64,000 nucleotides of DNA from an uncultured SAR86 cluster bacterium (GCA_902516285.1 CABXXT010000005.1:26064-90063); one strand, 5' to 3'; positions 5,592 to 43,178 are shown, counted from the stretch's first letter. Made by a program: numbers and translations. Notes: a model not told the origin generated them from the sequence alone.

Positions 5592-6227
5592 TCAAATATA
5601 TGCACTAGTTGATGTCATTACCTTCGCAGTAACTTCCATCACTTTTTTTGTTGGTGATTCTAACTCCTCTGCACCTGATTCATTAGCTTGACCAGCATGT
5701 AAATCTTCATCCGCTTGCATTGTCTTTAAGATCGCAATAGTTTCCTTATCTTTGTGTGAAACTTTATCAAGATGTTTTTGAAGATGTATTACAACTTGTT
5801 TCTCTGTTTCCTCAACGAAACCAAGACTAGTTTTTTCTCCCATTGAGCCAAATATTGCACCAATTGCAAATGAACCGGCATACCATAATGGATTTAAAGC
5901 AGAACTATTACCACCAAGCTCATCCAACCTCTTTTTACACCAAACCAAATGATCAGTCTCTTCGTCACCTGCATGAATTAAGTGTTTTTTTACTTCTGGA
6001 TCTTTGCAAACGAAAGCCTGCCCTCTATATAAAGCTTGGGCTGCCACCTCTCCAGCATGATTTATACGCATAAATTTAATGGAAAGATTTTTTTCCTTTT
6101 GAGACATATCCTCAGAATTTTTTCCTTCAGGTATAGGAGGGTAAACTCTATCAGTACCTGTTTTTTTATCAGATAAAGTTTTCAATGCAATATCTAACTC
6201 GTTAACTATGTTATTTAAAAAACTCAT
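5592..6227 (-). CDS. coq7: ubiquinone biosynthesis hydroxylase Coq7 (diiron 5-demethoxyubiquinol hydroxylase)
   Basis: 211-aa ORF with MRINHAGEVAAQALYRGQ, GDEETDHL and ADEDLH. It aligns by eye along its length with Pseudomonas Coq7. Confidence 0.88.
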   Translation of the reverse strand: MSFLNNIVNELDIALKTLSDKKTGTDRVYPPIPEGKNSEDMSQKEKNLSIKFMRINHAGEVAAQALYRGQAFVCKDPEVKKHLIHAGDEETDHLVWCKKRLDELGGNSSALNPLWYAGSFAIGAIFGSMGEKTSLGFVEETEKQVVIHLQKHLDKVSHKDKETIAILKTMQADEDLHAGQANESGAEELESPTKKVMEVTAKVMTSTSAYI

Positions 6228-7492: not shown

Positions 7493-9030
7493 TAATGCCT
7501 AAAATGTCTAGTGCCAGTAAATAACATTGCGATATCATTTTCATCTGCTGCCGCTATCACTTCCTCATCTTTAATTGAGCCACCAGGTTGAATTATTGAG
7601 GAAATTCCAGATGAAGCAGCTTTATCTATACCATCCCTAAATGGGAAGAAAGCATCTGAGGCCATTGCAGCACCCTTAACCTCTAATCCTTCTTCCTTGG
7701 CCTTTAAATTTGCTATTTCAGCACTGATAACTCTGCTCATTTGACCAGCTCCAATACCAATAGTCTGCTTATTTTTTACATAAACTATGGCATTGCTTTT
7801 GACAAACTTAGCTACTTTCCATGCAAACATTAGATCATTAATTTCTGCTTCACTTGGCTGTCTCTTTGAAACACACTTTAGATCATCAGCAGCTACACTT
7901 TTGAGATCATCATCCTGAACAAGAATGCCTCCTGAAACTTTTTTTATAGTTCCTGGGTATAAATTGTCTTGTTTTAAATCTACTTTTAAGACTCTTACAT
8001 TTTTTTTATTAGAAAACTCACTAATAGCATCATTTTCATAGTCTGGAGCGATAATAACTTCAACAAACTGTCTTGAATTAATTTCTTTTGCTGTTTTAAG
8101 ATCAACAGGCTTATTAAATGCAATTATTCCTCCAAAAGCAGAGGTTGGATCAGTTTTGAAAGCAAGATCATATGAATCAAAAATAGATTCACTTTCAGCA
8201 ACACCACATGGATTAGCGTGTTTTACAATTACACATGAAGGATTTTTAAACTCTCTCACACATTCCCATGCGGCATCTGCATCGACTATATTATTGTATG
8301 AAAGTTCTTTGCCTTGAATAATATCTGCGTTAGCAATATTTTTATTTTTAAGATTATCAAAAGTAAATAGTGAGGCAGATTGGTGAGGATTTTCTCCATA
8401 TCTTAAAGTAATACTTTTCTGAAAAGCATAATCATGCAAATCTTCTTTATCTTCATTTAAATAATCAGAAATTGACTTGTTATATTGCGCCATTAAAGAA
8501 AAAACTTTTTGTGATAGATTTTTACGTGAATCATATGAAATACCATTATTTTCATTCCACTCATTAATAATCTCTTCATAATCGTCAGGATCTGAAACCA
8601 CAACCACATCTTTGAAGTTTTTTGCTGCAGCTCTAATCATCGTTGGGCCACCAATATCAATTTTTTCAATTGCCTCTTCAAAAGAACAATCACTGGCAAT
8701 TGTTTCTTGAAATGGATACAAATTAACTATTACTAAATCTATACCTTCATACCCTTTCTCTTCCAATAATTCCATATCTGAATCCCTTCTTGCGAGAATC
8801 CCAGCATGTATTTTTGGATGAAGAGTTTTAACTCTTCCATCCATCATTTCCTCAAATCCAGTAAAATCTGATACCTCAATGACGTTGTCAGTAATTTTTT
8901 TTATAGCTTTAAATGTTCCACCGGTTGATAACATCTTGACATTTTTTTTTACAAGAAATTCAACAATTTTTTTTAAATTCGTTTTATCTGAAAGACTTAT
9001 CAAAGCTGTTTTTGGATCGATATAACTCAT
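7492..9030 (-). CDS. purH: bifunctional AICAR transformylase / IMP cyclohydrolase
   Basis: 512-aa ORF with ALISLSDKTNL, GGPTMIRAAAKN and C-terminal FTGTRHFRH. The fis-purH-purD order matches pseudomonads. Confidence 0.95.
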   Translation of the reverse strand: MSYIDPKTALISLSDKTNLKKIVEFLVKKNVKMLSTGGTFKAIKKITDNVIEVSDFTGFEEMMDGRVKTLHPKIHAGILARRDSDMELLEEKGYEGIDLVIVNLYPFQETIASDCSFEEAIEKIDIGGPTMIRAAAKNFKDVVVVSDPDDYEEIINEWNENNGISYDSRKNLSQKVFSLMAQYNKSISDYLNEDKEDLHDYAFQKSITLRYGENPHQSASLFTFDNLKNKNIANADIIQGKELSYNNIVDADAAWECVREFKNPSCVIVKHANPCGVAESESIFDSYDLAFKTDPTSAFGGIIAFNKPVDLKTAKEINSRQFVEVIIAPDYENDAISEFSNKKNVRVLKVDLKQDNLYPGTIKKVSGGILVQDDDLKSVAADDLKCVSKRQPSEAEINDLMFAWKVAKFVKSNAIVYVKNKQTIGIGAGQMSRVISAEIANLKAKEEGLEVKGAAMASDAFFPFRDGIDKAASSGISSIIQPGGSIKDEEVIAAADENDIAMLFTGTRHFRH

Positions 9031-9296
9031 TATTCAATATTATATTTTTTTAATTTTGTTCTAAGAGTTGTTCTGTTAATTCCTAATATTTTTGCAGCTT
9101 TAGATTGATTATTGTTTGAAAATTTCATAACAGCACTTAACAAAGGAGGCTCAACTTCATTAAAAACAAGTTGATATACATCTATTGGAGTATTCTTTTG
9201 ATCAAGCTGATTAAAATATCTTTTCATAGCTTTTCTCACCTCATCTTTCAGAGGTTTTTTTGAGTAGCTATCAAATGAATTAACTTTTTTTTCCAA
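9030..9296 (-). CDS. fis: DNA-binding protein Fis
   Basis: 88-aa ORF collinear with E. coli Fis (KPLKDEVRKAMKRYF..., HTH NQSKAAKILGINRTTLRTKLKKY). The only start upstream of the conserved part is TTG at 9296, so the start is uncertain. Confidence 0.85.
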   Translation of the reverse strand: MEKKVNSFDSYSKKPLKDEVRKAMKRYFNQLDQKNTPIDVYQLVFNEVEPPLLSAVMKFSNNNQSKAAKILGINRTTLRTKLKKYNIE

Positions 9297-9360
9297 AACA
9301 GAAATTTAAATAACAAAGACTAATAAGTTTACAGTTGTTTAAAAATTGCTCAATAGGTTT

Positions 9361-9924
9361 TTAAAGATTTATATCAGTTTTTTGATTACCACCAATTTTA
9401 CAATCTTTTATATAACCATTTTCCAATACTACTTTTGTGATTGAAGTATAGTCAGGAAAAAAATGCATTATTGAATCAGCTTTAACAAAATCACTAACAA
9501 CAGAATTGATCACCATAAAATGAGTAAAAATTATTGTATCTTTCTTGATGTTGCTAATGTTTAAAAAAATATTTTTTTGCCATTGTTGAATTAACAATGG
9601 AAGATCTTTCTTTTTCATCTTAATAATTTTCTTTAGCCATTCTTGTTTCTGATTTAGTTCAATGTTTGATGATGGAATTTCAATAAATGATTCATCAATC
9701 ACTACTTCTTTTTTATATTTTTCTGCTAAAGGCTTTGAGGTTTCAATTGCCCTTAATTTTGGGCTTGAAAGAAAATCATAATTCGATAAATTTGGCAGTT
9801 TTTTATTAGATGTTAAATTTTTTGCTTGATCTTTACCAATTTTACTAAGGCCTGGATCAAGATGATTTTCCCATGATGCAGAGGCTTGACCATGTCTTAC
9901 AAATAATAGATTAATCTCTGACAT
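9361..9924 (-). CDS. histidine phosphatase (phosphoglycerate-mutase-like) family protein
   Basis: It has the RHG motif (LLFVRHGQASASW). I prefer the ATG at 9924 (MSEINLLFVRHGQ) over the longer track ORF starting at 9966, which would overlap rsmE. Confidence 0.7.
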   Translation of the reverse strand: MSEINLLFVRHGQASASWENHLDPGLSKIGKDQAKNLTSNKKLPNLSNYDFLSSPKLRAIETSKPLAEKYKKEVVIDESFIEIPSSNIELNQKQEWLKKIIKMKKKDLPLLIQQWQKNIFLNISNIKKDTIIFTHFMVINSVVSDFVKADSIMHFFPDYTSITKVVLENGYIKDCKIGGNQKTDINL

Positions 9925-9954
9925 ATACTTCCAAGCTATAGCTATAATATTGAA

Positions 9955-10692
9955 GTGAGAATTCATAGAGTATATTGCAAGTTAGTATCAGGACCAAATG
10001 ACGAATTTAGTCTTGATGAGTCTCAAAGCCAACATTTGGTAAGAGCATTACGACTGAAAGAAGGTACTATTATTGAGATTTTTGATGGCCATGGATATTT
10101 TGCTAAATGTAAAATAATATCAATCTCTAAAACAAACTGTGATGTTGTGAGGATAGAAGAGTTAAAAAAAAGTGCTACTTGTCATCAAATTCTTACAGCG
10201 GTTATTCCTATAATTAAGGCCAGTAATTTTAATTTTATGTTACAAAAATTATCTGAAATAGGCGTAAACAAATTTGTGATCTATAAACCACAACTTATTG
10301 ATCAAAGTGTTGCTAAGAAAAATATTACAAAGCTATTAGATAAATCAAAAGAAGTTGTTATAAATGTTTGTAAACAATGCGGAAATAATTTTTTGCCAAG
10401 TCTAGCTTTTGAAAATAGCTTGAAGGATGCTATTTCTTCTTTCAAAAGTTCAGAGATTATTTATACATTTGATACTGCTGCAGAAGAATATTTTAATCAG
10501 GATGAGCTAAAGAATGATCATATTTCAATAATAACTGGGCCTGAATCTGGATTTTCTGAAGATGAGATCAATGAATTGAGCAATAAAAAAATTAATTTTA
10601 GATATTTAGGTGACAATGTTTTAAGATCTGAAACAGCTCCAATTTTTGTTGCAGCTTTGATAAAAAATTATTTTGGTAAAATCAAGAAATAG
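9955..10692 (+). CDS. rsmE: 16S rRNA (uracil1498-N3)-methyltransferase
   Basis: 245-aa ORF with a GTG start, RsmE-type N-terminus (RIHRVY..., ...QHLVRALRLKEG) and C-terminal SPOUT motif (IITGPESGFSEDEI ... LGDNVLRSETA). Confidence 0.85.
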   Translation: MRIHRVYCKLVSGPNDEFSLDESQSQHLVRALRLKEGTIIEIFDGHGYFAKCKIISISKTNCDVVRIEELKKSATCHQILTAVIPIIKASNFNFMLQKLSEIGVNKFVIYKPQLIDQSVAKKNITKLLDKSKEVVINVCKQCGNNFLPSLAFENSLKDAISSFKSSEIIYTFDTAAEEYFNQDELKNDHISIITGPESGFSEDEINELSNKKINFRYLGDNVLRSETAPIFVAALIKNYFGKIKK

Positions 10693-17199: not shown

Positions 17200-17928
17200 C
17201 TATAACTCATATGAGCGATATTCTTTTGCTTGCTTAACTAAGGCTTTTCTATAATCAATAGGTTTGAAAACTGGAGCATCAAAATTAATAAAATATATAT
17301 TCTCTTTTGAACTAATGTAATATCCATCTATTGTTAGCGCTATCATTGTTGCATTTTTGTCTTTAATTCCATGGCACGCATGAAGGGCCGATTGAATTAC
17401 ATTTGAATGATCATCATTCATATGATCAATCATCATTTGTTCACTTTTAGACCATTTAGGCGAATCGTCTTTCCAATTTTTCGGATCAAGCCAAGCTATA
17501 TCTCCAAAACCTCCAATCCATCTCACTCTTGAAATTTCAAGTTTATAAAACTTAAAGTCATGCATAGATGAATATTTTTTACTTTCTGGTAAAAATGTTA
17601 CAAATCTTTCTTGGCAAACTTCTAAGTCATCACTTGGGACAGCTTTTAAATTTCCCATAAGAGTTAACCTAGAACTATTTTGTTTATCGTAGTCAGTATC
17701 CAATTTAAAAAGCGTTACACAAGCTTTAGAGTTTTTTTTAAGGTTTATAGTGTGTTGAGCTATATCAGAGGTATACATAAACAACGTTCTATTTTTATCT
17801 GATACATATGTTATGAAGCTACCAAATGGATAACCTTCATATTTTTTTGACATAGTAGACAAAATGGCAGAATTAGCAGATCTATATAGCTTTACCGCTT
17901 CTAATTCATATTTTTTTCTTTTAAACAT
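17200..17928 (-). CDS. HugZ/HutZ-like heme utilisation protein (PNPOx-like split barrel + DUF2470)
   Basis: 242-aa ORF that is the last gene of the hmuTUV operon. It combines an N-terminal PNPOx-like region (AILSTMSKKYEGYPFGSFITYV) with a C-terminal DUF2470-like part (MIDHMNDDHSNVI). Confidence 0.7.
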   Translation of the reverse strand: MFKRKKYELEAVKLYRSANSAILSTMSKKYEGYPFGSFITYVSDKNRTLFMYTSDIAQHTINLKKNSKACVTLFKLDTDYDKQNSSRLTLMGNLKAVPSDDLEVCQERFVTFLPESKKYSSMHDFKFYKLEISRVRWIGGFGDIAWLDPKNWKDDSPKWSKSEQMMIDHMNDDHSNVIQSALHACHGIKDKNATMIALTIDGYYISSKENIYFINFDAPVFKPIDYRKALVKQAKEYRSYEL

Positions 17929-17931
17929 AGC

Positions 17932-18705
17932 TTAATAGTAAGTTATAAATAAAGGATCTTCCTGAACTTTTATCTCAATATCATAAATCTTAGATAAGAT
18001 TTTTGAATTAAGAACTTCTGAAGGCGTTCCTATCTTAACAACGCCACCTCTATCTAGTAATACAATTTTATCTGAAAATTTTGCAGCTAAATTCAGATCA
18101 TGAAGAACTAGCATTACTCCCGTTCCATCATTTGCAGCTTCTTTAACTATATTGAGAAGTTTAACTTCATATGTAATATCAAGATTGGCTGTAGGTTCGT
18201 CTAATAATAAATATTTTGGATCACTTGAGTCTGATGGTCTCCAAAGTTGTAAAAGTGTTCTAGCAAAGTGAATTCTTCTTTGTTCGCCACCTGATAAAGT
18301 ATTAAAGTTTCTTCTAATCAAATCTTTTACACCGCATTTAGTTACTACATCCATAACTGCATTTTCAAATTCATTAGCATAAGTACTCTCTCCTCTATCA
18401 ACCCAACCCATTTCAATTATTTCTTTAACCGAAAAATCAAAAGCAATCGCTTGAAGTTGAGACATTACGCTTCTCGTAAAAGCTCTTTCTTGAATATTAA
18501 CGTCACTGATATCCTTATTATCATAATGTATTGCTCCACTCGTAGGTTTGATATCACCAGCCAATGATTTGAGTAGCGTAGATTTACCAGCGCCATTAGG
18601 ACCAATAACAGATAATATTTCTCCTTGATGAATTTTTATAGAAACATCATTGAGAATCGACCTACCATTTAGATCTATACTTATTGAATCAGCGTTAATA
18701 CTCAT
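17932..18705 (-). CDS. hmuV: heme ABC transporter ATP-binding protein
   Basis: 257-aa ORF with Walker A GPNGAGKST, signature LSGGEQRR and Walker B LLLDEPT. Confidence 0.9.
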   Translation of the reverse strand: MSINADSISIDLNGRSILNDVSIKIHQGEILSVIGPNGAGKSTLLKSLAGDIKPTSGAIHYDNKDISDVNIQERAFTRSVMSQLQAIAFDFSVKEIIEMGWVDRGESTYANEFENAVMDVVTKCGVKDLIRRNFNTLSGGEQRRIHFARTLLQLWRPSDSSDPKYLLLDEPTANLDITYEVKLLNIVKEAANDGTGVMLVLHDLNLAAKFSDKIVLLDRGGVVKIGTPSEVLNSKILSKIYDIEIKVQEDPLFITYY

Positions 18706-19742
18706 GATCTTTTAATTCTAAAGATGAGCCATAAAAAGAATGGAGAACCAATAGCACTTGTAATCAAACCTACCGGAAGTTCTGCAGGTTGAATCATTGT
18801 TCTTGCTACCATGTCAGCTGTTATCATCAAAGCGGCTCCAATAAAAGCAGATCCAGGCAAAAGATAGTTATGATTTACACCGCCAAATAGCCTTACTAAA
18901 TGTGGAACAACTAATCCAACAAATCCAATCATTCCTGACAAAGAGACGCTTGCTCCAACTGCTGCAGCACAAGATATAATAATTTTATATTTTAATTTCT
19001 TTACATCTACCCCAAGCCTATATGCTTCCGGCTCTCCAAGTTGAATTAAGTCAAGATTTCTTGAAACAGTCATCATTGAAGCGACTGATATTAATATAAT
19101 AATTATTGCTGGTATTAATAGCGGCCATGTAACTCCACCGAAACTACCCATTGTCCAAAACGTTAAACCTCTTAATTCAGAATCCGTACTTATAAATGTA
19201 AGTATTCCAATACCAACACCTGCAATTGCATTTACCGCGATCCCAACAAGCAACATATATGTAACACCTTGATATCCAAATCCTTTAGTTAACATGTATA
19301 GCATCATAATTACTAAAATTGCTCCCGAAATTGCTCCCAAAGGCAATAAAAAAGATCCAAGCATAAAACCACTTAAAAAATTTGAACCTAAAACAATGAC
19401 TAAAGTTGCGCCTAATGCGGCTCCTGCTGAAACACCAATTAAGCCAGGATCAGCTAAAGGGTTACGGAAAAGTCCTTGAAGCGCAGCGCCTGAGATACCA
19501 AGACTGGCACCAACCAAAGCCGCCAATATGACCCTTGGCAATCGTATTTCCAACAAAACTATTTTTGTTAAGTCTGAAATCTCACCTGAATAAATATCTG
19601 TGAAATTAATGGCAATACTTCCATTTACACATGCTAATAGAAAGCAAATAGCGCATAAAATGACAAAAACGTTTAACTTAAATAATTGTTTTGATGAGAT
19701 ATGTAGTTTATTTAAATTAATTAAATTAAGAGCTTTATTCAT
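18702..19742 (-). CDS. hmuU: heme/iron-complex ABC transporter permease (FecCD family)
   Basis: 346-aa polytopic ORF with FecCD-type motifs (LPRVILAALVGASLGISGAALQGLFRNPLADPGLIGVSAGAALG). Confidence 0.9.
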   Translation of the reverse strand: MNKALNLINLNKLHISSKQLFKLNVFVILCAICFLLACVNGSIAINFTDIYSGEISDLTKIVLLEIRLPRVILAALVGASLGISGAALQGLFRNPLADPGLIGVSAGAALGATLVIVLGSNFLSGFMLGSFLLPLGAISGAILVIMMLYMLTKGFGYQGVTYMLLVGIAVNAIAGVGIGILTFISTDSELRGLTFWTMGSFGGVTWPLLIPAIIIILISVASMMTVSRNLDLIQLGEPEAYRLGVDVKKLKYKIIISCAAAVGASVSLSGMIGFVGLVVPHLVRLFGGVNHNYLLPGSAFIGAALMITADMVARTMIQPAELPVGLITSAIGSPFFLWLIFRIKRS

Positions 19743-20613
19743 CTTTAGAAATATATCTTAGAGCTACTTCTTTTGCAGAAGATATTGTTCTAGGTCCAAA
19801 GCCAAGCATTGCCATCCCATCAAGCGCTATAATGTTATTTTGCTTCGAGGCAGGAGTGAAAATTAAAGTTGGATGTTGACCAAGCTTTTCAACAGTTTTA
19901 AAAGAGGATAATCCTCTATTAGAAATAATTATGAAATCTGGACTCGCCTCTATTATTGATTCAGTTGAAACTGGCTTCCAACCCTCAAAAGAATTCATTA
20001 CATTTATACCACCCGTCATTTTAATAAAACCATCAGCTGAAGTGCCTCTTCCACCAACTGTGGGTGAACCACTTTCCATACTCAAGATAAACATTACTTT
20101 TTTTGTGCTTTGATTGCTTTTCACAATGCTATGTAGATCATTTGCCTCATTTCGTAAATCATTTAATACAATATTTTTATCGTAATCTGATATATCTAAT
20201 ATATTTGCTAAACACGAAACTTTATCAATAATGCCATCAGCAGTGTTTTCCTCTGGGATTATTTTTATATCTATTCCTACTCTCGATAGTTGTTCCAAAA
20301 CTGCAGCAGGACCCATATCGTTTTCACCTAAAATTAGTGATGGTGAAAGAGAAAGAACACCTTCAGCAGATAAAGCTCTTACATAGCCAATGGAGGGCAG
20401 TTCTGATGCCTGTTTTGGAAAGTTTGAAGTTATATCGACAGCAACTAGCTTTTCATCTTGTTCAAGGGCATAAATAATTTCTGTAATTGAGCCGCCTGCA
20501 ACAGTAATTCTTGATGCATCCAAAGCTTTATCACAAGCGCTGTTTATACAAGCAGAAAAAAGAATTAGTACGAATAAAAATTTAATTAGTTTATATGATT
20601 TAAATATACTCAT
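19735..20613 (-). CDS. hmuT: periplasmic hemin-binding protein of ABC transporter
   Basis: 292-aa ORF with a signal peptide and a class-8 substrate-binding fold (RITVAGGSITEIIYAL ... PDFIIIS). It is the first gene of the hmuTUV operon, divergent from the receptor. Confidence 0.82.
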   Translation of the reverse strand: MSIFKSYKLIKFLFVLILFSACINSACDKALDASRITVAGGSITEIIYALEQDEKLVAVDITSNFPKQASELPSIGYVRALSAEGVLSLSPSLILGENDMGPAAVLEQLSRVGIDIKIIPEENTADGIIDKVSCLANILDISDYDKNIVLNDLRNEANDLHSIVKSNQSTKKVMFILSMESGSPTVGGRGTSADGFIKMTGGINVMNSFEGWKPVSTESIIEASPDFIIISNRGLSSFKTVEKLGQHPTLIFTPASKQNNIIALDGMAMLGFGPRTISSAKEVALRYISKDE

Positions 20614-20632
20614 AATTGATTTTTTTGTAAAA

Positions 20633-20651
20633 CTAAATGATAATCATTCTC
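20633..20651. promoter_or_regulatory. Fur box in the divergent hmuT / receptor intergenic region
   Basis: CTAAATGATAATCATTCTC matches the 19-bp Fur consensus GATAATGATAATCATTATC at 15/19 positions (hand count). It lies in the 76-bp gap between divergent iron-uptake genes. Confidence 0.7.
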
Positions 20652-20689
20652 ATTCTCATTTAATGTAATAAAAAATACAAGGATAAATT

Positions 20690-22894
20690 ATGAAATATAT
20701 AAAAACAATAATGGTCTTAGGAGTTTTTTTTGCATTTCCTTTTATAAATTCACAAGATAACTCTGATGATATTGAAGAAGTTGTAACTGTTAGTGCAAAA
20801 CAACCAGTGCCAATTGGTGAAGTAGTGGGCTCTGTTGCAGTAATATCTCAAGATGAAATAGAAGCAAGACTTGTTTCTGATGTATCACAACTCTTGGAAA
20901 ACACGATTGGTATAACTGTGCCAAAAGATATCTCATCTGGTAGATCGAGAAATTCTGATGTTGTTATTCGAGGCGTTGGAAATAACAGAGTCAATATATT
21001 TATTGATGGTTTTAGAACTGGTGATGCATATCAAAGTGGTGGATATGGTAAAGATTTGGTTGATACTGAGCTTTTAAAAAGAGTTGAAATTCTTAAAGGC
21101 CCAAGTTCATCTTTGTATGGTTCAGATGGTTTAGCTGGCACAATTGCTTACACCACAAAAGATGCTTCAGATATAGCTGACGAATCTAATCCATACCTTT
21201 CAGCTACATTGAGTTCACAGGATGTGAACAGCCAAGAAAAAGTGACAGTTCTTGGCGCAATGGTCAGAAATAATTTAGAAGCACTTGTTCAATTAAGCAC
21301 AAGAGAAATGAATGAAATGGAGGTTCATGATAGTGCTACTGAAACACTTAACCCTATGGATGGTGAACAAGAGAGTATTTTGGCTAAGCTTAAATTATCA
21401 CTTAATAATGGCTCTTCTATAAATATCACATTCGATAATCAAGAGCTTGATTCAGAATATAACCTTCTTACTGACTTAGGAAGCGGCTTTAGTGCTGCTA
21501 ATATGCAGGTAGAAAATGTTTCCTCTTCATTAGGTTTAGACAATTTAACTAGGGAGAGATTTTCAATTACATATGAATTTTCTGGAAAAAATAGTCTATT
21601 TGATAGTGGAGTAATCAGATCTTTCTCACAAACAACCGATCAGAGAACTACAACTTCAAAAAATAAAGCAATAATGGTTATGCCGGCCTTTGGACCACCT
21701 ATACCATCTTTTGTTCCGACTTCCGAAGCAAGTGATTTTGACTTTAATCAAGAGGTATCAGGTTTCTCGCTAGAAATGATTAAGGTTATTGGAAATCATA
21801 ATATTATTTATGGTGTAGAGAGTGAAACGGCTGAGTATTCAAGAAATAATGACAAAACTGAAGTCAATCTTATTACCGGTGATGTAAATAAAACCCTCGC
21901 AAATACTTTATATCCTCATAAGCGTTTTCCAGATAGTGAGGTCACTCGAGAAGCAATTTTTATCAATGATAGGATTTATTTAAATGATAAAACCACAGCT
22001 GTTCTTGGAGCTCGCTATGACTCTTATGATCAAAAAGCAAAAACAGATGCTCTTCATGCAAGAAATAATATTTTTGGACACGAAGTCAAGCCAAGAAGTG
22101 ATAGTCAAGCGTCTATGAAAGTTGGCTTAATAAGAGATATTTCTGGAGATATGTCTTTGTTTTTGCAATATGCAGAAGGTTATAGAAATCCAAACTTTGA
22201 TGAGGCATACAACACGTATACGAACTTAGCACAGATGTATACGATAATTCCTAATCCAAATATTACCGCTGAAACAAGTGAGGGTTTTGAGATTGGGTTA
22301 AGAGGTTCTTTAACCAATACTTCATGGTCATTAGCTTATTACAAAAATGACTATAAAGATTTTATTGCATATGAATATCTCTTCCCACCAATTCAAGGAG
22401 TTCTTCAAGTGCAGTATCAAAACTTAGGATCTGTTGAGACAAATGGAATTGAATTTGAGTCAAAAACAGTATTCAATGACAGTTTTTCAGCTTCATTTGG
22501 TGTAAGTTTAAATGAGGGCAGAGAGGATGATGGCTATTTAGAATCCTTATCACCTGACCACGCTAAAATTTCACTATCATGGATATCTGATAGCGGTAGA
22601 TTAAGTTGGAATACTATCTCAACATTAATGAAATCAAGTCGTTCTATTTTAAGTCCTGTTTGTGACAGAAGCGGTGTATGTTCTCCAGCTCAAGAAACAG
22701 CAGGAAGAGTAACGTTGGATACATATTTAAACTTCGATTTAACTGAAAAAGTAAATATTAAGTTTGGTGTAAGAAATCTAACAGACATTAAATATTGGGA
22801 TTATCCAACAATTACTGGACAAGCAGCTGGAACTGCAGATGAGTACTTAATGCCAGGAAGAAATATTAGTTTTTCAATACGATACAGCTTGTAA
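20690..22894 (+). CDS. TonB-dependent outer-membrane receptor, probably heme/hemoprotein
   Basis: 734-aa ORF with a signal peptide, a plug domain (VVIRGVG...RVNIFIDG, RVEILKGPSSSLYGSDGLAGTI) and a C-terminal aromatic residue. It has FRAP/NPNL-like boxes (GYRNPNF ... IIPNPNITAETSEG) and is divergent from hmuTUV. Confidence 0.85.
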   Translation: MKYIKTIMVLGVFFAFPFINSQDNSDDIEEVVTVSAKQPVPIGEVVGSVAVISQDEIEARLVSDVSQLLENTIGITVPKDISSGRSRNSDVVIRGVGNNRVNIFIDGFRTGDAYQSGGYGKDLVDTELLKRVEILKGPSSSLYGSDGLAGTIAYTTKDASDIADESNPYLSATLSSQDVNSQEKVTVLGAMVRNNLEALVQLSTREMNEMEVHDSATETLNPMDGEQESILAKLKLSLNNGSSINITFDNQELDSEYNLLTDLGSGFSAANMQVENVSSSLGLDNLTRERFSITYEFSGKNSLFDSGVIRSFSQTTDQRTTTSKNKAIMVMPAFGPPIPSFVPTSEASDFDFNQEVSGFSLEMIKVIGNHNIIYGVESETAEYSRNNDKTEVNLITGDVNKTLANTLYPHKRFPDSEVTREAIFINDRIYLNDKTTAVLGARYDSYDQKAKTDALHARNNIFGHEVKPRSDSQASMKVGLIRDISGDMSLFLQYAEGYRNPNFDEAYNTYTNLAQMYTIIPNPNITAETSEGFEIGLRGSLTNTSWSLAYYKNDYKDFIAYEYLFPPIQGVLQVQYQNLGSVETNGIEFESKTVFNDSFSASFGVSLNEGREDDGYLESLSPDHAKISLSWISDSGRLSWNTISTLMKSSRSILSPVCDRSGVCSPAQETAGRVTLDTYLNFDLTEKVNIKFGVRNLTDIKYWDYPTITGQAAGTADEYLMPGRNISFSIRYSL

Positions 22895-35250: not shown

Positions 35251-36069
35251 TTATAGTTGTTTTTGTTGTAATGCTCTTAATGCACCTAGTACATTACCAT
35301 ATTCTCTATTTTCTTCAAATATTCCATTAATATTTGCTAATTTAAGCCTATCCTCAATTCCTTTTTTTATTGTTTCTATCTGAGATGTTCTGCCCATAAA
35401 ATAAACTTCTTTCTGACCACATACAATGGCATTAAGATAAGCTATAGTCCCAATTACTTCACCAATCATATTTGATAGCGATGCCGCAATATCAGATGGA
35501 TTATGATCTTTAGAAGATCTTCCTTTAAGAAAATTTGAGGCTGAAATCTCAGGATACAAAGAGCCTATTTCGTTTACAGCTTCGCCAATAAGAAGATCAA
35601 GGTTTTGTCTATTACCTTTTTGAGATAGCTCTTCAAGTTCTGAGACCTCTGTAGTATTTAAAATGTAATTTGATAAGCCTAAAAGAGTACCGCCACCTAT
35701 TGAAATTCCGCCAAGATGGTTAAACTTATTATCATCATGAAAGATACATGCTGTTCCAGTTCCGGCACTAACTGCTACAAAAGGTTTGTTTTTTAAATCA
35801 TATAATTCCAATGCACCATATCCAATAGCATCAACTTCATTCACTTTAATAATTGGAATATTTTTGATTGAATTTGAGAGATCACTTGATTTACCACCAG
35901 TAACTGCAATTTTTTCTAAATTTGTTGTATCTACATCAATGTAGTGAAGTATTTTGTCAAGAATTTCATCATTAATTTGCTCTGATGGCATTGAAAAAAA
36001 TTCTTTATCTCCGTTATCAGAAATTACAATATCTGTATTTGATGTTCCAAAATCAATTCCAATTATCAT
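35251..36069 (-). CDS. type II pantothenate kinase (CoaW / fumble family), ASKHA fold
   Basis: 272-aa ORF collinear by eye with S. aureus CoaW (IGIDFGTSNTDIV; AVTGGKS; VDAIGYGA; VSAGTGTACIF...LGGISIGGGTLLGLSNYIL; GNRQNLDLLIGE; YFMGRT...GNVLGALRAL). Confidence 0.7.
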   Translation of the reverse strand: MIIGIDFGTSNTDIVISDNGDKEFFSMPSEQINDEILDKILHYIDVDTTNLEKIAVTGGKSSDLSNSIKNIPIIKVNEVDAIGYGALELYDLKNKPFVAVSAGTGTACIFHDDNKFNHLGGISIGGGTLLGLSNYILNTTEVSELEELSQKGNRQNLDLLIGEAVNEIGSLYPEISASNFLKGRSSKDHNPSDIAASLSNMIGEVIGTIAYLNAIVCGQKEVYFMGRTSQIETIKKGIEDRLKLANINGIFEENREYGNVLGALRALQQKQL

Positions 36070-36080
36070 ATTTGTCTAAT

Positions 36081-38288
36081 TTATTCAGATGCACCTTCAG
36101 GCCATGCCATTGGAATTTGTTGTTGAGGATTAAATACATTAATACCATCAACTGGATACGCATTTGCAGCAGAATCAATTTCTCTTTGATTTAAAAATTC
36201 ACTTGGAACAAGTTTAAAAACATCAAGACCTCTTGTTATTTCAGTTCCATAAATAAATCCTTTATAAAAATAAGTTGACCAGTAACCACCAGTTATTAGT
36301 AAATCTTCTAAAATTGGACCCCTATCAAAATATGCTATTTCAATTGGATTGCTTGAATCAGTAAAATCCATTATTGACATTCCACCTTGGTACCAGGCTT
36401 GAACAAAAATATCTCTATTTGGAATAGGGACTATTGAGCCATTATGCGCTACACAATTTTCAGTTTCTAACTGAGGGGCAGGCATTTTATAGTGACTTCT
36501 AAATTCTAACTTGTTATCAACAATATCGTATATAGCATCTGCACCCCAATCTAAAGGATCCCATGCTCTACATCTAGCACGACCACCACCACCCCATTCA
36601 TCTGTAAATATTACTTTTGTTCCGTCATTATTAAACGTTGCGGAGTGCCAGTATGCAAAACCTACATCAGTCACAACATCAAGCCTTGAAGGATTGTAGG
36701 GGTCAGTTATATCAAATAAGATTCCATTACCTGAGCAAGCACCTGCAGCGATATTGGCTGAGGGAAAAACTGTAATATCATGACACTGATCTGTAGGGTT
36801 AGTATCCTGAGTATCACCACCATGATCACCACCGCGCCACAAACCAGCAACATTTCCAGTTTCAATATCAGTAAAGACAGCTGGACTTTTTACAATCTTA
36901 GAGCTTGATGGATCATTAATTGGTATCTCAATAATATCAATTGTAAAGTAAGAAGAACCACCTCCAGTCCATCCCAAGCATGATGATAATTCTTCATTAT
37001 CTCTTACACGACCTGTTCCAGAATTATAAATAATAATTTTATTTTCAGATGTTGAACTAGACACAACAGAATGGGTATGTGATCCCCTGCAGGTTTGTAC
37101 AGCACCAACCTGTCTAGGTTTTGACAAATTTGAAATATCAAAAATTCTAATGCCTCTAAATCTTTCAGGACTAGCATCACTTCCTATACCTTCTAGACCG
37201 CAGTCAATTCTGCTTCTGTTTTCTTCAACAGACATAATGAGAAGGTTTCCAACAATTGAGACATCTCCTTGTCCCCCTGGACAAACGACTGATGAGATAA
37301 GTTCAGGAATACCATCTGATTTAAGATTATAGATATTAAAACCGTGATAACTCCCGGCTACCATGACATCATCTTTAAATGCCATATCAGTATTTGCAAA
37401 ACTTAACATAGGCCTTCTTAAAGAACGGGACATTTCTTCAGTTGTTTTATCAGAATTATCCTCTGTCAAATCTTCAGAGCCTTTGGCAGATGGGTTCTTG
37501 GGATCAAAAAACCCAGATGGTTTTTTTAATGAAGCAATTAACTCAAGGTTTAGTATGGCCTCATCAGCAATATATAAACCGGGTGAAAGTCCTGATCTTG
37601 GATCATCAGATATATTGACTGCTATAGTATTCATTCTCTCTATCTCAATACCTTGATCATTAACTAAATCTGATACGAACTCATTTAAAATTGGGTCATA
37701 GGCTGACCCAGGATATTTCTTTAATTCCTTGACCATTTCCAATGCCCCATAATGGTGTGCAATCATTAATTGTAAAAACAATCTATCAAAGTCTGAGCTA
37801 TCTGACATTTCAAGTTTATCAACTTGCATTTTTGATGCCATTCCAACCATTTTTAAGTGCATATGATCCATATGATTATGGCTATTTATTTTAGTTTCGT
37901 ATTCATCTCTTTCTTTGAGCCAACTACCCATAAAATTGATTTCATCTTCTTGGGAAACCTCTATTCTTTTTGCCAATTCTAGAATTACTTTATTATTAGT
38001 TCTATTTTCAGCCATATTTGACATAACAATGGCCTGTTGATGATGAATTATCATACCCTGAAGAAAATTTACATCTGCTTTAATATAAGAAGTGTTTGCT
38101 ATATTGGTGGCATCTTCTTCATTAAGGCTTTTTGAAGGCTCACCTGGGGCACCGGGTTGGATTATTGGTGCGTCTGAACTATCCTCATTTGAATAGAGCA
38201 TATTATTTGAAAAAGTTAAAACAAGAAAAGTAAATAAGACTTGTTTATACATAGATGTTAGGTAATTATTTATCTTCATCATCTTCAA
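36081..38288 (-). CDS. secreted DUF305 (four-helix, His-rich) domain fused to an LVIVD-repeat beta-propeller
   Basis: 735-aa ORF. The N-terminus carries DUF305 motifs (FLQGMIIHHQQAIVMS; FLQLMIAHHYGALEMV) and a His/Met tract (NSHNHMDHMHLKMVGM). The C-terminus has repeated ...G(I/L)x(I/V)(F/M)D(I/F)(S/T)(N/D)xxxP... units. The signal peptide fits better from M13 (38252). Confidence 0.65.
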   Translation of the reverse strand: MKMMKINNYLTSMYKQVLFTFLVLTFSNNMLYSNEDSSDAPIIQPGAPGEPSKSLNEEDATNIANTSYIKADVNFLQGMIIHHQQAIVMSNMAENRTNNKVILELAKRIEVSQEDEINFMGSWLKERDEYETKINSHNHMDHMHLKMVGMASKMQVDKLEMSDSSDFDRLFLQLMIAHHYGALEMVKELKKYPGSAYDPILNEFVSDLVNDQGIEIERMNTIAVNISDDPRSGLSPGLYIADEAILNLELIASLKKPSGFFDPKNPSAKGSEDLTEDNSDKTTEEMSRSLRRPMLSFANTDMAFKDDVMVAGSYHGFNIYNLKSDGIPELISSVVCPGGQGDVSIVGNLLIMSVEENRSRIDCGLEGIGSDASPERFRGIRIFDISNLSKPRQVGAVQTCRGSHTHSVVSSSTSENKIIIYNSGTGRVRDNEELSSCLGWTGGGSSYFTIDIIEIPINDPSSSKIVKSPAVFTDIETGNVAGLWRGGDHGGDTQDTNPTDQCHDITVFPSANIAAGACSGNGILFDITDPYNPSRLDVVTDVGFAYWHSATFNNDGTKVIFTDEWGGGGRARCRAWDPLDWGADAIYDIVDNKLEFRSHYKMPAPQLETENCVAHNGSIVPIPNRDIFVQAWYQGGMSIMDFTDSSNPIEIAYFDRGPILEDLLITGGYWSTYFYKGFIYGTEITRGLDVFKLVPSEFLNQREIDSAANAYPVDGINVFNPQQQIPMAWPEGASE

Positions 38289-38454
38289 TTATTTCTTCTG
38301 ATTCACCTTCAATAATATTGTCAGATTTCTGATCTCCAAATCTATTTATTCTATTGCTTCTATTAAGTTGTTTACTTGACGCTTTTACTTTTGCCAGCTT
38401 GAAAAACGCATATAAAGATAGAACTGCTAAGAGTCCAAATACTATAGAGTTCAA
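38266..38454 (-). CDS. small single-pass membrane protein with acidic C-terminal tail (hypothetical)
   Basis: 62-aa ORF with one TM helix (IVFGLLAVLSLYAFF), then a basic stretch and the tail GESEEIIEDDEDK. The TTG start is 4 nt after the upstream stop and no ATG is available. Coding status is uncertain. Confidence 0.35.
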   Translation of the reverse strand: MNSIVFGLLAVLSLYAFFKLAKVKASSKQLNRSNRINRFGDQKSDNIIEGESEEIIEDDEDK

Positions 38455-39268: not shown

Positions 39269-40375
39269 TTAGATTGCTTCTGGAATTTGTCCAAACTTTT
39301 CAAGTGGCTTTCTCATTTCAGCCCAATCACATTCAAAGTCATCTGGAGCGTGTTCGTATTCCAGTAATCCTAGTGCTTCAAATTTAGGTCTTACCTCATC
39401 GGTTAGCAGTCCAATTCTTGATAAATTTGGTATGACTCTTGAGAAAAGGAAGTTCCTAAACATATCAAATGTTTTAGTATTTAATTGAAACTCTCGAGCT
39501 TCTTCTTCAGACATCTTCAAAAATCTTTGTTCTGCTTTGGTATTTATTAGTCTTTCTCGAGAAATTACACATGCTTCATATGCAAACTGAGCTCTTTCAT
39601 TAATCTCTTCGGGAGTCAAAGTCTGGATAAAATCTTCTAGGTAGTTAATACCAAAGGTTACATGTCGTGCCTCATCTCTTACAACATAATGAAGTAACTG
39701 TTTTAATAACGGATCTTTAGTGATCGATTTCAGCATTTGAAACGCCGCAAGAGCTAAACCTTCAATGATTATCTGCATGCCAATGAACTTTAGATCCCAT
39801 CGTTCGTCAGTGAGTATTTTGTCTAACAAAAGTTTTAATGATGGATTAATGGGGTAATGTATACCAATTTTGTCCTGTAAATATTTATTAAAAACCTCAA
39901 CATGCCTAGCTTCATCAAATGTTTGTGATGCTGCATATAATTTAGCGTTATAGGTTGGTGCACAGCTTGCTAGTTGAGAAGCGACTAGTAATGCACCTTG
40001 CTCACCATGAAGGAATTGGCTCATCAATTCAGCAGTAGAATGTCTGTCGAAAAGTATTTTTTCCTCTTCTGAAAGTTTTTGATAGGCTTCAAGAGTTTCA
40101 TGAGGTAATTCCTCATCAGGTTCGATTAATCTTTCATCAGAAGGATGGGTGTAATCCCAATTAAGGTCTATAGAACCATTCCAATTAAGTTCTTTACCTA
40201 ATTCGTAAAGTTTTTTAATTCTATTATCTGCAACTGTGTAATCCCAGTTATATGATCCTGTAAGAGGTGTTTTAAAAATTTCAACAACATCCTCAACATT
40301 ATTTTGTGTAAGATTTAGATCTTCATCAAAATATATTAAATCCTCTGGGGGTCCATTCTGTTTACGAATCTTCAT
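39269..40375 (-). CDS. ferritin-like diiron-carboxylate protein (R2/AurF-like oxygenase family)
   Basis: 368-aa ORF with a four-helix ligand pattern E / ExxH / E / ExxH: FLHGEQGAL, DEARHVEVF, IIIEGLALAAF, RDEARHVTF. Confidence 0.65.
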   Translation of the reverse strand: MKIRKQNGPPEDLIYFDEDLNLTQNNVEDVVEIFKTPLTGSYNWDYTVADNRIKKLYELGKELNWNGSIDLNWDYTHPSDERLIEPDEELPHETLEAYQKLSEEEKILFDRHSTAELMSQFLHGEQGALLVASQLASCAPTYNAKLYAASQTFDEARHVEVFNKYLQDKIGIHYPINPSLKLLLDKILTDERWDLKFIGMQIIIEGLALAAFQMLKSITKDPLLKQLLHYVVRDEARHVTFGINYLEDFIQTLTPEEINERAQFAYEACVISRERLINTKAEQRFLKMSEEEAREFQLNTKTFDMFRNFLFSRVIPNLSRIGLLTDEVRPKFEALGLLEYEHAPDDFECDWAEMRKPLEKFGQIPEAI

Positions 40376-40432
40376 AATTTTAATACTCTTTATATTTTTT
40401 TAATATTTGAAAAACCAATTTTATAATATTTG

Positions 40433-42196
40433 TTAGTCATTGAAAAGTTTTGTTAACTCACTTAGCAAAACTTCACCAAGCTCATCAGCTCTATTTATAG
40501 TAAGAGCATTTTTATAATATTTAGTAACATCGTGTCCTATCCCAATTGCTTGAAGCTCAACATTCTTATCACTTTCTATTTTTGAAATCATATCTTTTAA
40601 ATGATTATCTAAAAAGTCCTCTCTATTTGCTGATAAAGTACTATCATCAACTGGCGCTCCATCTGAAATTACAATTAAAATTTTTCTTTCTTCAGGTCTT
40701 TTTATTAATCTTTCATGTGACCATGCGAGCGCTTCACCATCAACATTTTCTTTTAGCAGACCTTCTCTTAACATCGCTCCAAAATATCTTCTGGCTCTTC
40801 TCCAACTATTATCTGCGCTTTTATAAATAATATGCCTTATATCATTTAATCTTCCTGGATTAGAACTATTGCCTTTTATGATCCACAATTTTTTTGAGTC
40901 CCCACCTTTCCAATGTTTTGTTGTAAATCCAAGTATTTCAGTTTTTACTTGGCATCTCTCAAGAGTACTTCCAATAATATCTGTACATATTGCAGCAAGA
41001 CTTATAGACCTTCCCCTCATAGAACCAGAATTATCAATAAGAAGAGTAACGACAGTGTCTTTAAATTTATTTTCAGTTTCTTGTTTGAAACTAAGAGGAA
41101 AGCCTGGATTAGCAATAACTCTATGCAAACGAGCATTATCAAGCAATCCCTCCTCAAGATTGAAATTCCAGCTTGTGTTTTGTTTTGCAAGTAAGAGTCT
41201 TTGAAGCCTGTTAGCCAACTTTCCAATTGTTGACAGATGTGGTTTTATTAAATTATCAAGTTGATTTCTTAATCTTATTGACTCGTCAGCAGTCACAAGA
41301 TCTTTGGCCTCAATAATCTCATCAAATTGTGATGTGTATATTGAATAATCATATTTGATTGAATTTTTGTATTGGTTGTCTGGATAGACAAGTGATTCAA
41401 GCTCCTCTTGAATTGCACTATCATCAACTTCCTTAAGCTCAGCATCAATATCTTCAATTTCTGCATTAATATCTTTTAAACTAACATCTTCATTTTGTTC
41501 AGTTAAACCCTCTGGGTCATCACTTTCACTTTCAAAATCATCTGTTGTACCTGGTGGTTCTATAAAATCATCATCCTCATCCTTGTTATCAGAATTCTTA
41601 AGAAGATTTATTTGTTTTAAAAAAATAACAGACAATTTTTCAAACTCATCTTGATTATTAATATTATTTTTTATCTTTTTAATTAAAGGATTGAATGAAG
41701 AATCAATATTATATTTTTTTAAAAATTTATCTAATATATCTTCAGATTTTTTTCCAATAGGAAAATCAAAAATACTTTTTAACCATAAATTAGCACCATG
41801 AGAAAAAAAGTTCATTGATTTCTCATCAACAAGGCCAATGCTTTTTGATTCTATATATTCACTTAAATTATTTTTTGAACCTAAATACATTTCTGAGCCT
41901 AAGATCTCAGTTCTTGATATTTCGAGCTCATTAAAAATCATTCTTGCTGGCAATGTAAGAGGGAACTCTTTAGTTTGTTTATGAAAAAGATACCAGAAGG
42001 CCTGAAAATCAGATTCACCTCTCCATTTGCTTTTTTCTCCACTAGATCTTGGAGCAGAGGGTATAACAATACTTTTCTGTGATGGTGGTCTTTGAGCAAG
42101 ACCAGTGCTTGAAGAGAGCTTTTTATCATTTGCAATAGCTTTTACTGTAGATACTGCAGCTTCGTGAAGCTTATCCCTGTTTTTTATCCATGCCAT
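40433..42196 (-). CDS. cobT: CobT-like vWA-domain protein (cobaltochelatase CobT family)
   Basis: 587-aa ORF with a long acidic central tract ([26 protein letters not shown]...[13 protein letters not shown]) and a C-terminal vWA domain with [16 protein letters not shown]. Confidence 0.75.
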
Positions 42197-42209
42197 TTAT
42201 TATTTACTA

Positions 42210-43178
42210 CTATTCCAATTCTATTTCGAGGTCAAAACATCTTTGGAAATATTCTGAAATGATGGACTTTTCAATATCATCACATTTATTGAGAAATGTA
42301 AGCTTAAATGAATCGACTAAATCTTTGAAAATCTTAAAATTTTGAGCCCATGATATTACTGTTCTGGGAGACATTAATGTAGAAATATCGCCATTAGCAA
42401 AACCTACTCTTGTTAAATTGGCCAACTTAACCATATTTTTTATCATCTCTTGGTTTTTAGCTCCTTTTAGATTGCCAAGTTTAGAAATGATGACCTTGTA
42501 TTCTTGACTTGGATCTAAATAATTTAGAGTTGCTAAAATATGCCATCTATCCATTTGACCCTGATTAATTTGTTGAGTTCCGTGATAAAGACCTGTCATG
42601 TCACCAAGTCCAACAGTATTTGTTGTAGCAAATAATCTAAAGGAATTATGCGGATTTAAGACTTGATTTTGATCCAATAGAGTTAACTTTCCTTCAACCT
42701 CTAAAATTCTTTGAATTACAAACATAACATCGGGTCTACCAGCATCATATTCATCAAATACTAACGCAACAGGATTTTGTATTGACCATGGAAGAAGACC
42801 TTCTTGAAATTCAGTGACCTGCTTACCATCATTGAGCTTAATAGCATCTTTCCCCAATAAATCAATTCGACTTATGTGACTATCTAAGTTTATTCTCACA
42901 CAAGGCCAGTTTAAGCGGGCTGCAATTTGTTCAATATGAGTTGATTTGCCAGTCCCATGAAAGCCTTGAACCATTACTCTTCTATTATGTTCAAATCCTG
43001 CAAGAATAGATAAAGTAGTTTTTTTATCAAATACATAACTAGCGTCTATTTCAGGCACCCAATCTGTCTTATTTTTGAAACCTCTAACTGATAATTTAGA
43101 ATTAATTCCAAATGTTTTAGAAACATCAAACTTATGATCTGGCTTATTGGGCAATTCAATTTTATTTATCGTAGACAT
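42210..43178 (-). CDS. cobS: CobS-like MoxR-class AAA+ ATPase (cobaltochelatase CobS family)
   Basis: 322-aa ORF with Walker A GFHGTGKST and Walker B LVFDEYDAGRPDV. It lies 13 nt upstream of the cobT-like gene. Confidence 0.8.
   Translation of the reverse strand: MSTINKIELPNKPDHKFDVSKTFGINSKLSVRGFKNKTDWVPEIDASYVFDKKTTLSILAGFEHNRRVMVQGFHGTGKSTHIEQIAARLNWPCVRINLDSHISRIDLLGKDAIKLNDGKQVTEFQEGLLPWSIQNPVALVFDEYDAGRPDVMFVIQRILEVEGKLTLLDQNQVLNPHNSFRLFATTNTVGLGDMTGLYHGTQQINQGQMDRWHILATLNYLDPSQEYKVIISKLGNLKGAKNQEMIKNMVKLANLTRVGFANGDISTLMSPRTVISWAQNFKIFKDLVDSFKLTFLNKCDDIEKSIISEYFQRCFDLEIELE

Follow-up and report, generated by a model that had tools for sequence, protein, structure and literature searches.

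A 64,000-nucleotide (nt) stretch of DNA from an uncultured SAR86 cluster bacterium (GCA_902516285.1, CABXXT010000005.1:26064-90063; hereafter the window) encodes close orthologues of CobS and CobT, the motor and adaptor of cobaltochelatase, as an orphan pair with no corrin gene family detected nearby, followed directly by a gene for a diiron-carboxylate protein. We put a probability of about 55% on the pair being a motor and adaptor that act on some client independently of vitamin B12. For these proteins we infer a remodelling mechanism and a client encoded elsewhere. The neighbouring diiron protein is at best a lineage-specific candidate client, and not the reason that the pair exists, because nearly everywhere else its family does without CobS-CobT.

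The locus consists of three minus-strand open reading frames (ORFs) at 39269-43178, of 322, 587 and 368 residues, with gaps of 13 nt and then 57 nt, in a window of about 32% G+C (Table 1). An earlier interpretation made from the DNA alone (the sequence-only reading) had placed three co-directional genes here with the same gaps, and had picked out Walker A and B motifs, an acidic tract, a DNSGS motif of the metal-ion-dependent adhesion site (MIDAS) and a set of diiron ligand motifs; its coordinates were recovered from the ORFs, and all of the motifs were located in the proteins. Of the profile families that it had pointed to, CobS/AAA_5, CobT/CobT_C and AurF were matched in hidden Markov model searches. 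The CobS-like protein matched Pfam AAA_5 (42.6 bits) and CobS_N (24.4 bits), and the CobT-like protein matched CobT (PF06213, 52 bits) and CobT_C (PF11775, 295 bits).

Comparison with solved structures placed the pair more closely. The window CobS aligned to Brucella melitensis CobS (PDB 9ujv) over residues 5-319 with 455 bits, about two-thirds of the aligned positions being identical (estimated by eye, not computed), and the window CobT aligned to B. melitensis CobT (PDB 9uka) over residues 13-586 with 432 bits, its VWA domain being the most conserved part. The next PDB matches of the window CobS were the AAA domains of Midasin/Rea1 (82-104 bits) and CbbQ (33 bits). From the Brucella alignments, the pair is assigned as the orthologue of the genuine cobaltochelatase motor and adaptor, not as a distant MoxR relative. 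Midasin/Rea1, the best PDB match after CobS itself, is a ribosome-assembly AAA+ protein with a MIDAS domain of its own.

The solved structure of the B. melitensis CobSTN complex shows three tiers (CobS6-CobT-CobN), with CobN between the two CobT domains near the MIDAS site and out of contact with CobS; in the cryo-electron microscopy structures of Brucella CobST, the CobT linker is unresolved (bioRxiv 10.64898/2026.07.21.739949). The window proteins resemble this system in domain order and length. The window CobS combines an AAA+ core and both Walker motifs with full-length CobS homology, the window CobT carries a CobT domain, an acidic linker and a VWA domain with a DxSxS-type MIDAS (DNSGS), and cobS is followed directly by cobT on the same strand, 13 nt away. 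They differ in that no cobN or corrin gene lies nearby, in a clade reported as lacking B12 synthesis, and in that both fall below the curated NCBIfam equivalog cut-offs (TIGR01650 CobS, 496.8 bits against 558.55; TIGR01651, 514.2 bits against 759.05).

The CobS protein is well maintained in SAR86. The exact window protein occurs on 171 public contigs, labelled ‘AAA family ATPase’ or ‘cobaltochelatase CobS’ (Gammaproteobacteria metagenome-assembled genomes, MAGs), and CobS identity is 87-89% among close relatives in SAR86 and 71-77% in the deeper lineages, levels from which CobS appears to be under purifying selection.

All window ORFs of at least 150 residues were scanned against Pfam or NCBIfam, except GltB, whose identity was taken from the annotation of relatives. 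None of these ORFs matched a cob or cbi family, in agreement with the sequence-only reading, which had noted the absence of cobN and of cob/cbi genes from the 64 kb; nor did the window show a cobalamin riboswitch. The only ORF of a length compatible with CobN is GltB (1476 residues). A generic His_Phos_1 phosphatase at 9361-9966 shares its superfamily with CobC, which is no evidence for a cob gene. The pair is therefore an orphan within the 64-kb window. For the clade as a whole, the text of Dupont et al. (PMC3358033) states that SAR86 genomes lack every gene of the B12 pathway, and clashes with Table 1 of the same paper, which gives ‘Yes’ for B12 synthesis in SAR86B. The btuB gene has been reported across the SAR86 order (PMC11582366).

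The linkage was viewed from the side of CobS. A degenerate DNA pattern encoding YHGTQQINQ, a CobS motif, was run against metagenome contigs and gave 120 loci, unranked by similarity to the window, whose CobS proteins are 58-74% identical to that of the window, apart from one SAR86 contig (88%). CobS was followed by CobT in most of the loci with room for it, and no CobN-like large ORF lay beside cobS-cobT in the 120 loci. The diiron gene followed cobT in just one locus, L268, from SAR86; in another, L225, a weak diiron-like match (36% identity) lay 8 kb away. G+C was below 0.33 in 35 of the 120 loci, and the protein cluster of the CobS from one of these (L180) has a member named ‘cobaltochelatase subunit CobS [Candidatus Pelagibacter sp.]’. 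Since a Pelagibacter CobS is thus in the sample and SAR11 genomes are listed as without B12 synthesis (PMC3358033), the orphan CobS-CobT state is common to SAR11 and SAR86 and is not special to the window locus.

The order BolA-like gene, J-domain protein gene, cobS and cobT, often with rpmB after them, recurs in many of these loci (for example, L213:4178-8628), and on the strength of this shared order the other sampled CobS loci are probably alphaproteobacterial. The J-domain gene, whose product has an HPD motif, is present in 63 of the 120 loci and in 27 of the 35 low-GC loci. The Candidatus Pelagibacter pair is like that of the window in being kept by a B12 non-producer, with CobT directly after CobS and a CobS of 64-70% identity to that of the window. 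The two differ in surroundings: the former, like many of the other loci, sits in the BolA-like/J-domain/rpmB block, whereas the SAR86 pair sits between a short-chain dehydrogenase/reductase (SDR) gene and the diiron gene, lacks the upstream J-domain gene typical elsewhere, and has no homologue of that protein anywhere in the window or the SAR86 loci. The conserved BolA-like/J-domain context may point to the real role of the orphan CobS-CobT. The sequence-only reading had called a role outside cobalamin synthesis undescribed for CobST homologues. The retention of an orphan pair in Pelagibacter as well takes something from that claim; it stands in so far as literature searches covering Rickettsia, Caulobacter, Pelagibacter and SAR86 brought up no paper that accounts for an orphan CobS-CobT.

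The same linkage was also viewed from the diiron gene. A profile scan of GTDB species genomes gave 80 diiron loci, with up to 10 kb of flank on each side, which were searched by tblastn with the window proteins; four close relatives (L001-L004) were found separately, outside the 80. Just 7 of these loci, all from SAR86, had the cobS-cobT pair upstream of the diiron gene: directly upstream in L005-L009 and L033, as also in L001-L004, with L035 ending at a contig edge. At the approximately 65 non-SAR86 loci, which include Alcanivorax, Halieaceae, Pseudomonadales, Hyphomonadaceae, Myxococcota, Binatia, Streptomyces and Acidimicrobiia, no CobS or CobT was found within 10 kb. Nor is the arrangement universal in SAR86. 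In L011 (single-amplified genome AG-898-K03) and L013 (MAG MED-G83), the same hemE-tesB-SDR block is present and the diiron gene comes straight after the SDR gene, the locus lacking cobS-cobT, and in L020 and L024 the diiron gene stands in an unrelated context without cobS-cobT beside it. In a neighbour-joining tree of the diiron proteins (without support values), L011 and L013 nest inside the CobST-bearing clade, and L033 branches outside them; this nesting suggests that cobS-cobT was lost or moved at L011 and L013 while the diiron gene stayed.

Counted from either gene, 7 of 80 diiron loci and 1 of 120 CobS loci are linked, all of them SAR86. The diiron gene, as a candidate client, is thus no conserved neighbour of the pair wherever either occurs, and the proposal of the sequence-only reading, that the pair matures the adjacent diiron enzyme, is unsupported, the linkage being limited to one SAR86 subclade. 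The gltBD-tesB-SDR-... order is conserved too in these streamlined SAR86 genomes, and adjacency alone is weak evidence because of this general synteny.

The diiron protein itself matched Pfam AurF (PF11583) with 46.0 bits against a gathering score of 29.6, and gave weaker profile matches to R2lox, aldehyde decarbonylase, DUF455 and ribonucleotide reductase (RNR) R2. An alignment of 33 homologues of 31-61% identity has H123, E155, H158, E205, E235 and H238 as invariant residues, with E125 nearly invariant; six ligands (E125, E155, H158, E205, E235 and H238) form two E...ExxH sets on a four-helix core. The sequence-only reading had allowed that the ligands might be lost in a proper alignment; they are retained across the 33 homologues. 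An AlphaFold2 model showed an R2-like helical bundle (mean predicted local distance difference test score, pLDDT, 86.4), for which the best Foldseek matches were RNR R2, CmlI, R2lox and aldehyde-deformylating oxygenase (ADO), with template-modelling (TM) scores of about 0.45-0.5 and 12-19% identity. The likeness to AurF, CmlI, R2lox, ADO and RNR R2 therefore lies in the two ligand sets, the AurF score and the fold, and the difference in those low identities and TM scores; no close solved relative was found among PDB structures. Relatives of at least 89% identity are named as Gammaproteobacteria MAGs, and the profile scan of genomes put the locus in single-cell and metagenome-assembled genomes of SAR86. 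An exhaustive search of representatives gave 2136 clusters (50% identity) at E ≤0.001 and 323 at E ≤1e-30, and the protein, as judged by these matches, belongs to a distinct family of 323 such clusters or more.

Members of this family are fused to AMP-binding, PP-binding and NAD_binding_4 domains (a carboxylic-acid/fatty-acyl reductase-like arrangement), to an ABC1/UbiB kinase, to SCP2 or to FAD-binding domains (P0156, P0190, P0149, P0151, P0265 and P0243); TetR_N was matched in one member only. From most of these fusion partners, and from the weak likeness to aldehyde-deformylating oxygenase and R2lox, the substrate may be a lipid, an aldehyde or a quinone rather than an arylamine. The substrate cannot be read from genomic context, because no gene is broadly conserved beside the diiron gene across the 80 genome loci. 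No biosynthetic family was seen among the scanned window ORFs, in a scan that included no search aimed at antibiotic gene clusters. A second ferritin-like diiron enzyme of the window, a COQ7-type diiron ubiquinone hydroxylase at 5592-6227, has no chaperone gene adjoining it.

The diiron protein is also encoded by phages, at full length and with 52-58% identity, on at least 245 IMG/VR stretches, where it lies among T4-like genes (gp46/gp47-like, UvsW-like, gp55-like, capsid and tail-fibre genes, assigned by reading the sequences). Its gene would appear to be an auxiliary one, not yet described, in uncultured marine myophages. In 80 IMG/VR contigs (L088-L167) no CobS-CobT pair lay beside the diiron gene. 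A distant phage cobS was within 8 kb in four of them, 6-8 kb from the diiron gene in three of the four and with cobT in none. In one phage sublineage, cobS lay 6-7 kb from the diiron gene in 6 of 25 loci with enough flank, without CobT. Among 50,697 GenBank phage records none carried the diiron gene and 513 carried cobS, 27-35% identical to the window CobS. We accordingly rejected phage co-occurrence as support for a CobS-diiron partnership, it being confined to one sublineage, without CobT, and set against 0 diiron and 513 cobS GenBank records. One tandem pair of diiron paralogues was seen on a phage contig (L103:8001-10217, at 8001-9077 and 9099-10217).

Phage cobS genes (of cyanomyophages, pelagimyophages, SSU5-like phage-plasmids and ICP2-like vibriophages) resemble the window locus in being orphan CobS genes, sometimes with CobT (about 29% identity), without a corrin pathway; the phage pairs inspected had no diiron neighbour. 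They differ in their low identity, the window pair being of the cellular, Brucella-like type, and a phage origin of the pair was rejected on this comparison (27-35% for phage CobS/CobT against 58-74% for cellular CobS and 455 bits to Brucella). A ‘viral’ CobS match in L087 was uninformative, as it is a bacterial cobS beside an insertion sequence element and a prophage tail gene. In the neighbour-joining tree, the L020 and L024 diiron proteins are sister to the whole phage clade, and this position suggests gene exchange between SAR86-like hosts and diiron-carrying phages.

The strongest challenge to a B12-independent pair with a client elsewhere comes from the arrangement of the three genes in the window and its closest relatives, which would fit a CobS-CobT that is a dedicated maturation or metallation chaperone of the adjacent diiron oxygenase in the SAR86 clade, encoded in one operon. 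The genes share a strand, the gaps are 13 and 57 nt, and no terminator-like site was found in the 57-nt spacer. All 10 full loci of the SAR86 subclade keep the three genes contiguous on one strand, with cobT-diiron spacers of 37-66 nt, while identity falls to 46% for CobT and to 63% for the diiron protein and some of the flanking genes change; contiguity kept in this way is compatible with a functional operon. The precedent is also there, as NorQD, CoxDE and CbbQO serve neighbouring metalloenzyme clients (summarized in bioRxiv 10.64898/2026.07.21.739949). These points weigh against our preferred account, as does the footing of one of its parts: we infer the B12 independence of the SAR86 pair from published genome surveys, one of which contradicts itself. 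Co-transcription of cobS, cobT and the diiron gene is possible. The diiron gene may have its own promoter, at which a -10-like element just past the cobT stop (TATAAAAT/TATAGAAT/TATAAT), kept in closer relatives and not in L007 or L033, hints; the promoter-like match in the spacer covers 9 of 12 positions, of a kind not enriched over shuffled sequence, and the scan for promoters and terminators (20 promoter-like sites against 23 expected) is uninformative in such AT-rich DNA. The comparison beyond the subclade tells more heavily. The diiron family does without the pair in the approximately 65 bacterial loci, in L011, L013, L020 and L024 and in the 80 phage contigs, 119 of the 120 CobS loci do without the diiron gene, and the conserved gltBD-tesB-SDR synteny lessens what adjacency can say. 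NorQ/NorD, CbbQ/CbbO and CoxD/CoxE are likewise an AAA+ motor and a VWA/MIDAS adaptor encoded side by side, CbbQ being a distant relative (33 bits), and provide a mechanistic template for client remodelling (bioRxiv 10.64898/2026.07.21.739949), but their client gene is a conserved neighbour, whereas the window's candidate client adjoins the pair in one subclade only. As a general rule, a dedicated diiron chaperone is contradicted by both directions of comparison, and even for the SAR86 clade we find it doubtful. A blend of the two ideas, in which CobS-CobT is a general AAA+/MIDAS remodeller in SAR11 and SAR86 that was captured in an operon in one SAR86 clade and there metallates or reactivates the diiron oxygenase, we regard as unlikely.

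The very high similarity to characterized CobS and CobT could instead mean that the pair is a true cobaltochelatase motor whose CobN, or a CobN/ChlH-like chelatase or dechelatase, is encoded elsewhere in the genome and serves corrinoid synthesis, salvage or another tetrapyrrole reaction. The position of hemE three genes upstream, a heme uptake and utilization cluster about 20 kb away, the SAR86B entry in Table 1 of Dupont et al. (PMC3358033) and a Bacteroides CobN homologue that is a heme dechelatase (bioRxiv 10.64898/2026.07.21.739949) would be in keeping with this. It is nonetheless very unlikely in our judgement, given that no cobN or cob/cbi gene lies within the 64 kb, that SAR86 lacks B12 pathway genes according to the text of the same survey (PMC3358033), that both proteins score under the NCBI equivalog cut-offs, and that Pelagibacter retains the pair without the pathway. 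Nor does the pair look like a recently transferred or decaying remnant without current function. L011 and L013 lack it at the corresponding locus, and the sole nameable non-SAR86 CobS locus is alphaproteobacterial (Pelagibacter), as horizontal acquisition would allow; yet the ORFs are full length with all catalytic motifs present, CobS remains 87-89% identical in close relatives and is still there at 71-77% in deep SAR86 lineages, and the exact protein recurs on those 171 contigs, which leaves a remnant extremely improbable.

If the pair is, as we favour, a B12-independent motor and adaptor, CobS would form a hexameric AAA+ motor and CobT would act as a single adaptor, with its N-terminal domain docking on the motor and its C-terminal VWA/MIDAS domain gripping the client. 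The MIDAS domain would bind an acidic residue of the client, as in CobSTN, NorQD and CbbQO, and ATP hydrolysis by the ring would remodel the client, possibly opening or loading a metal site. The SAR86 module would act in this way outside cobalamin synthesis, as also seems to be the case in Pelagibacter.

Table 1 Features of the cobS-cobT-diiron locus (window coordinates).
Feature	Position	Strand	Basis or remark
cobS-like gene, 322 residues; AAA+ ATPase, motor subunit	42210..43178	-	ORF; Pfam, NCBIfam and Brucella CobS matches
Walker A GFHGTGKST, residues 72-80	42939..42965	-	Aligns with the same motif of Brucella CobS
Walker B LVFDEYDA, residues 139-146	42741..42764	-	Aligned to Brucella CobS
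cobS/cobT spacer, 13 nt	42197..42209	-	About 0-36 nt typical in 36 adjacent metagenomic pairs measured
cobT-like gene, 587 residues; adaptor with N-terminal CobT domain, acidic linker and C-terminal VWA domain	40433..42196	-	Pfam, NCBIfam and Brucella CobT matches
Acidic CobT linker, probably disordered, residues 201-268, about 41% D/E	41393..41596	-	Sequence composition
MIDAS DNSGS of VWA domain, residues 388-392	41021..41035	-	Aligned to DNSGS of Brucella CobT
cobT/diiron spacer, 57 nt, AT-rich	40376..40432	-	-10-like TAAAAT at 40418-40423; AAGAG ribosome-binding-like site at 40386-40390
Diiron-carboxylate gene (ferritin-like, Pfam AurF), 368 residues	39269..40375	-	Pfam AurF; alignment; AlphaFold2 model; Foldseek
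Ligand motif 1 FLHGEQGAL	39989..40015	-	H123 invariant, E125 nearly invariant
Ligand motif 2 DEARHVEVF	39890..39916	-	E155 and H158 invariant
Ligand motif 3 IIIEGLAL	39749..39772	-	E205 invariant
Ligand motif 4 RDEARHVTF	39653..39679	-	E235 and H238 invariant

Other genes of the window were noted in passing. A heme uptake and utilization cluster at 17200-22894 includes genes for a HugZ-like protein, a FecCD permease and a binding protein. Its heme ABC ATPase scored 285.7 bits (cut-off 261), and for its TonB-dependent receptor heme/hemoglobin receptor subfamilies gave the best match (312.9 bits, just under the cut-off of 323.75). On the same strand as the diiron and BaxI genes and downstream of them, 36081-38454 encodes a 735-residue protein with an N-terminal DUF305/CopM-like copper-binding region and a C-terminal choice-of-anchor-B domain; a 62-residue ORF precedes this gene and is called in relatives too. 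A Fumble-type (type II pantothenate kinase-like) gene at 35251-36069, between the DUF305 and FA_hydroxylase genes, is absent from that position in L001-L004; deeper SAR86 lineages have it downstream of the diiron gene, at a distance of about 0.6-5.6 kb.

The cobS and cobT genes are routinely counted as markers of cobalamin synthesis in marine metagenomes, and such counts can mislead, because the pair is present in SAR86 and SAR11, both reported as non-producers of B12. The substrate of the diiron protein is of ecological interest, its gene being a frequent auxiliary gene on contigs of uncultured marine T4-like phages, and a diiron client, if true, would be the first CobS-CobT client besides CobN. 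More broadly, a highly conserved ATP-driven machine is kept in two very abundant clades of ocean heterotrophs, SAR11 and SAR86; if its client is indeed something other than CobN, CobS-CobT would join NorQD and CbbQO in the class of metalloenzyme chaperones.

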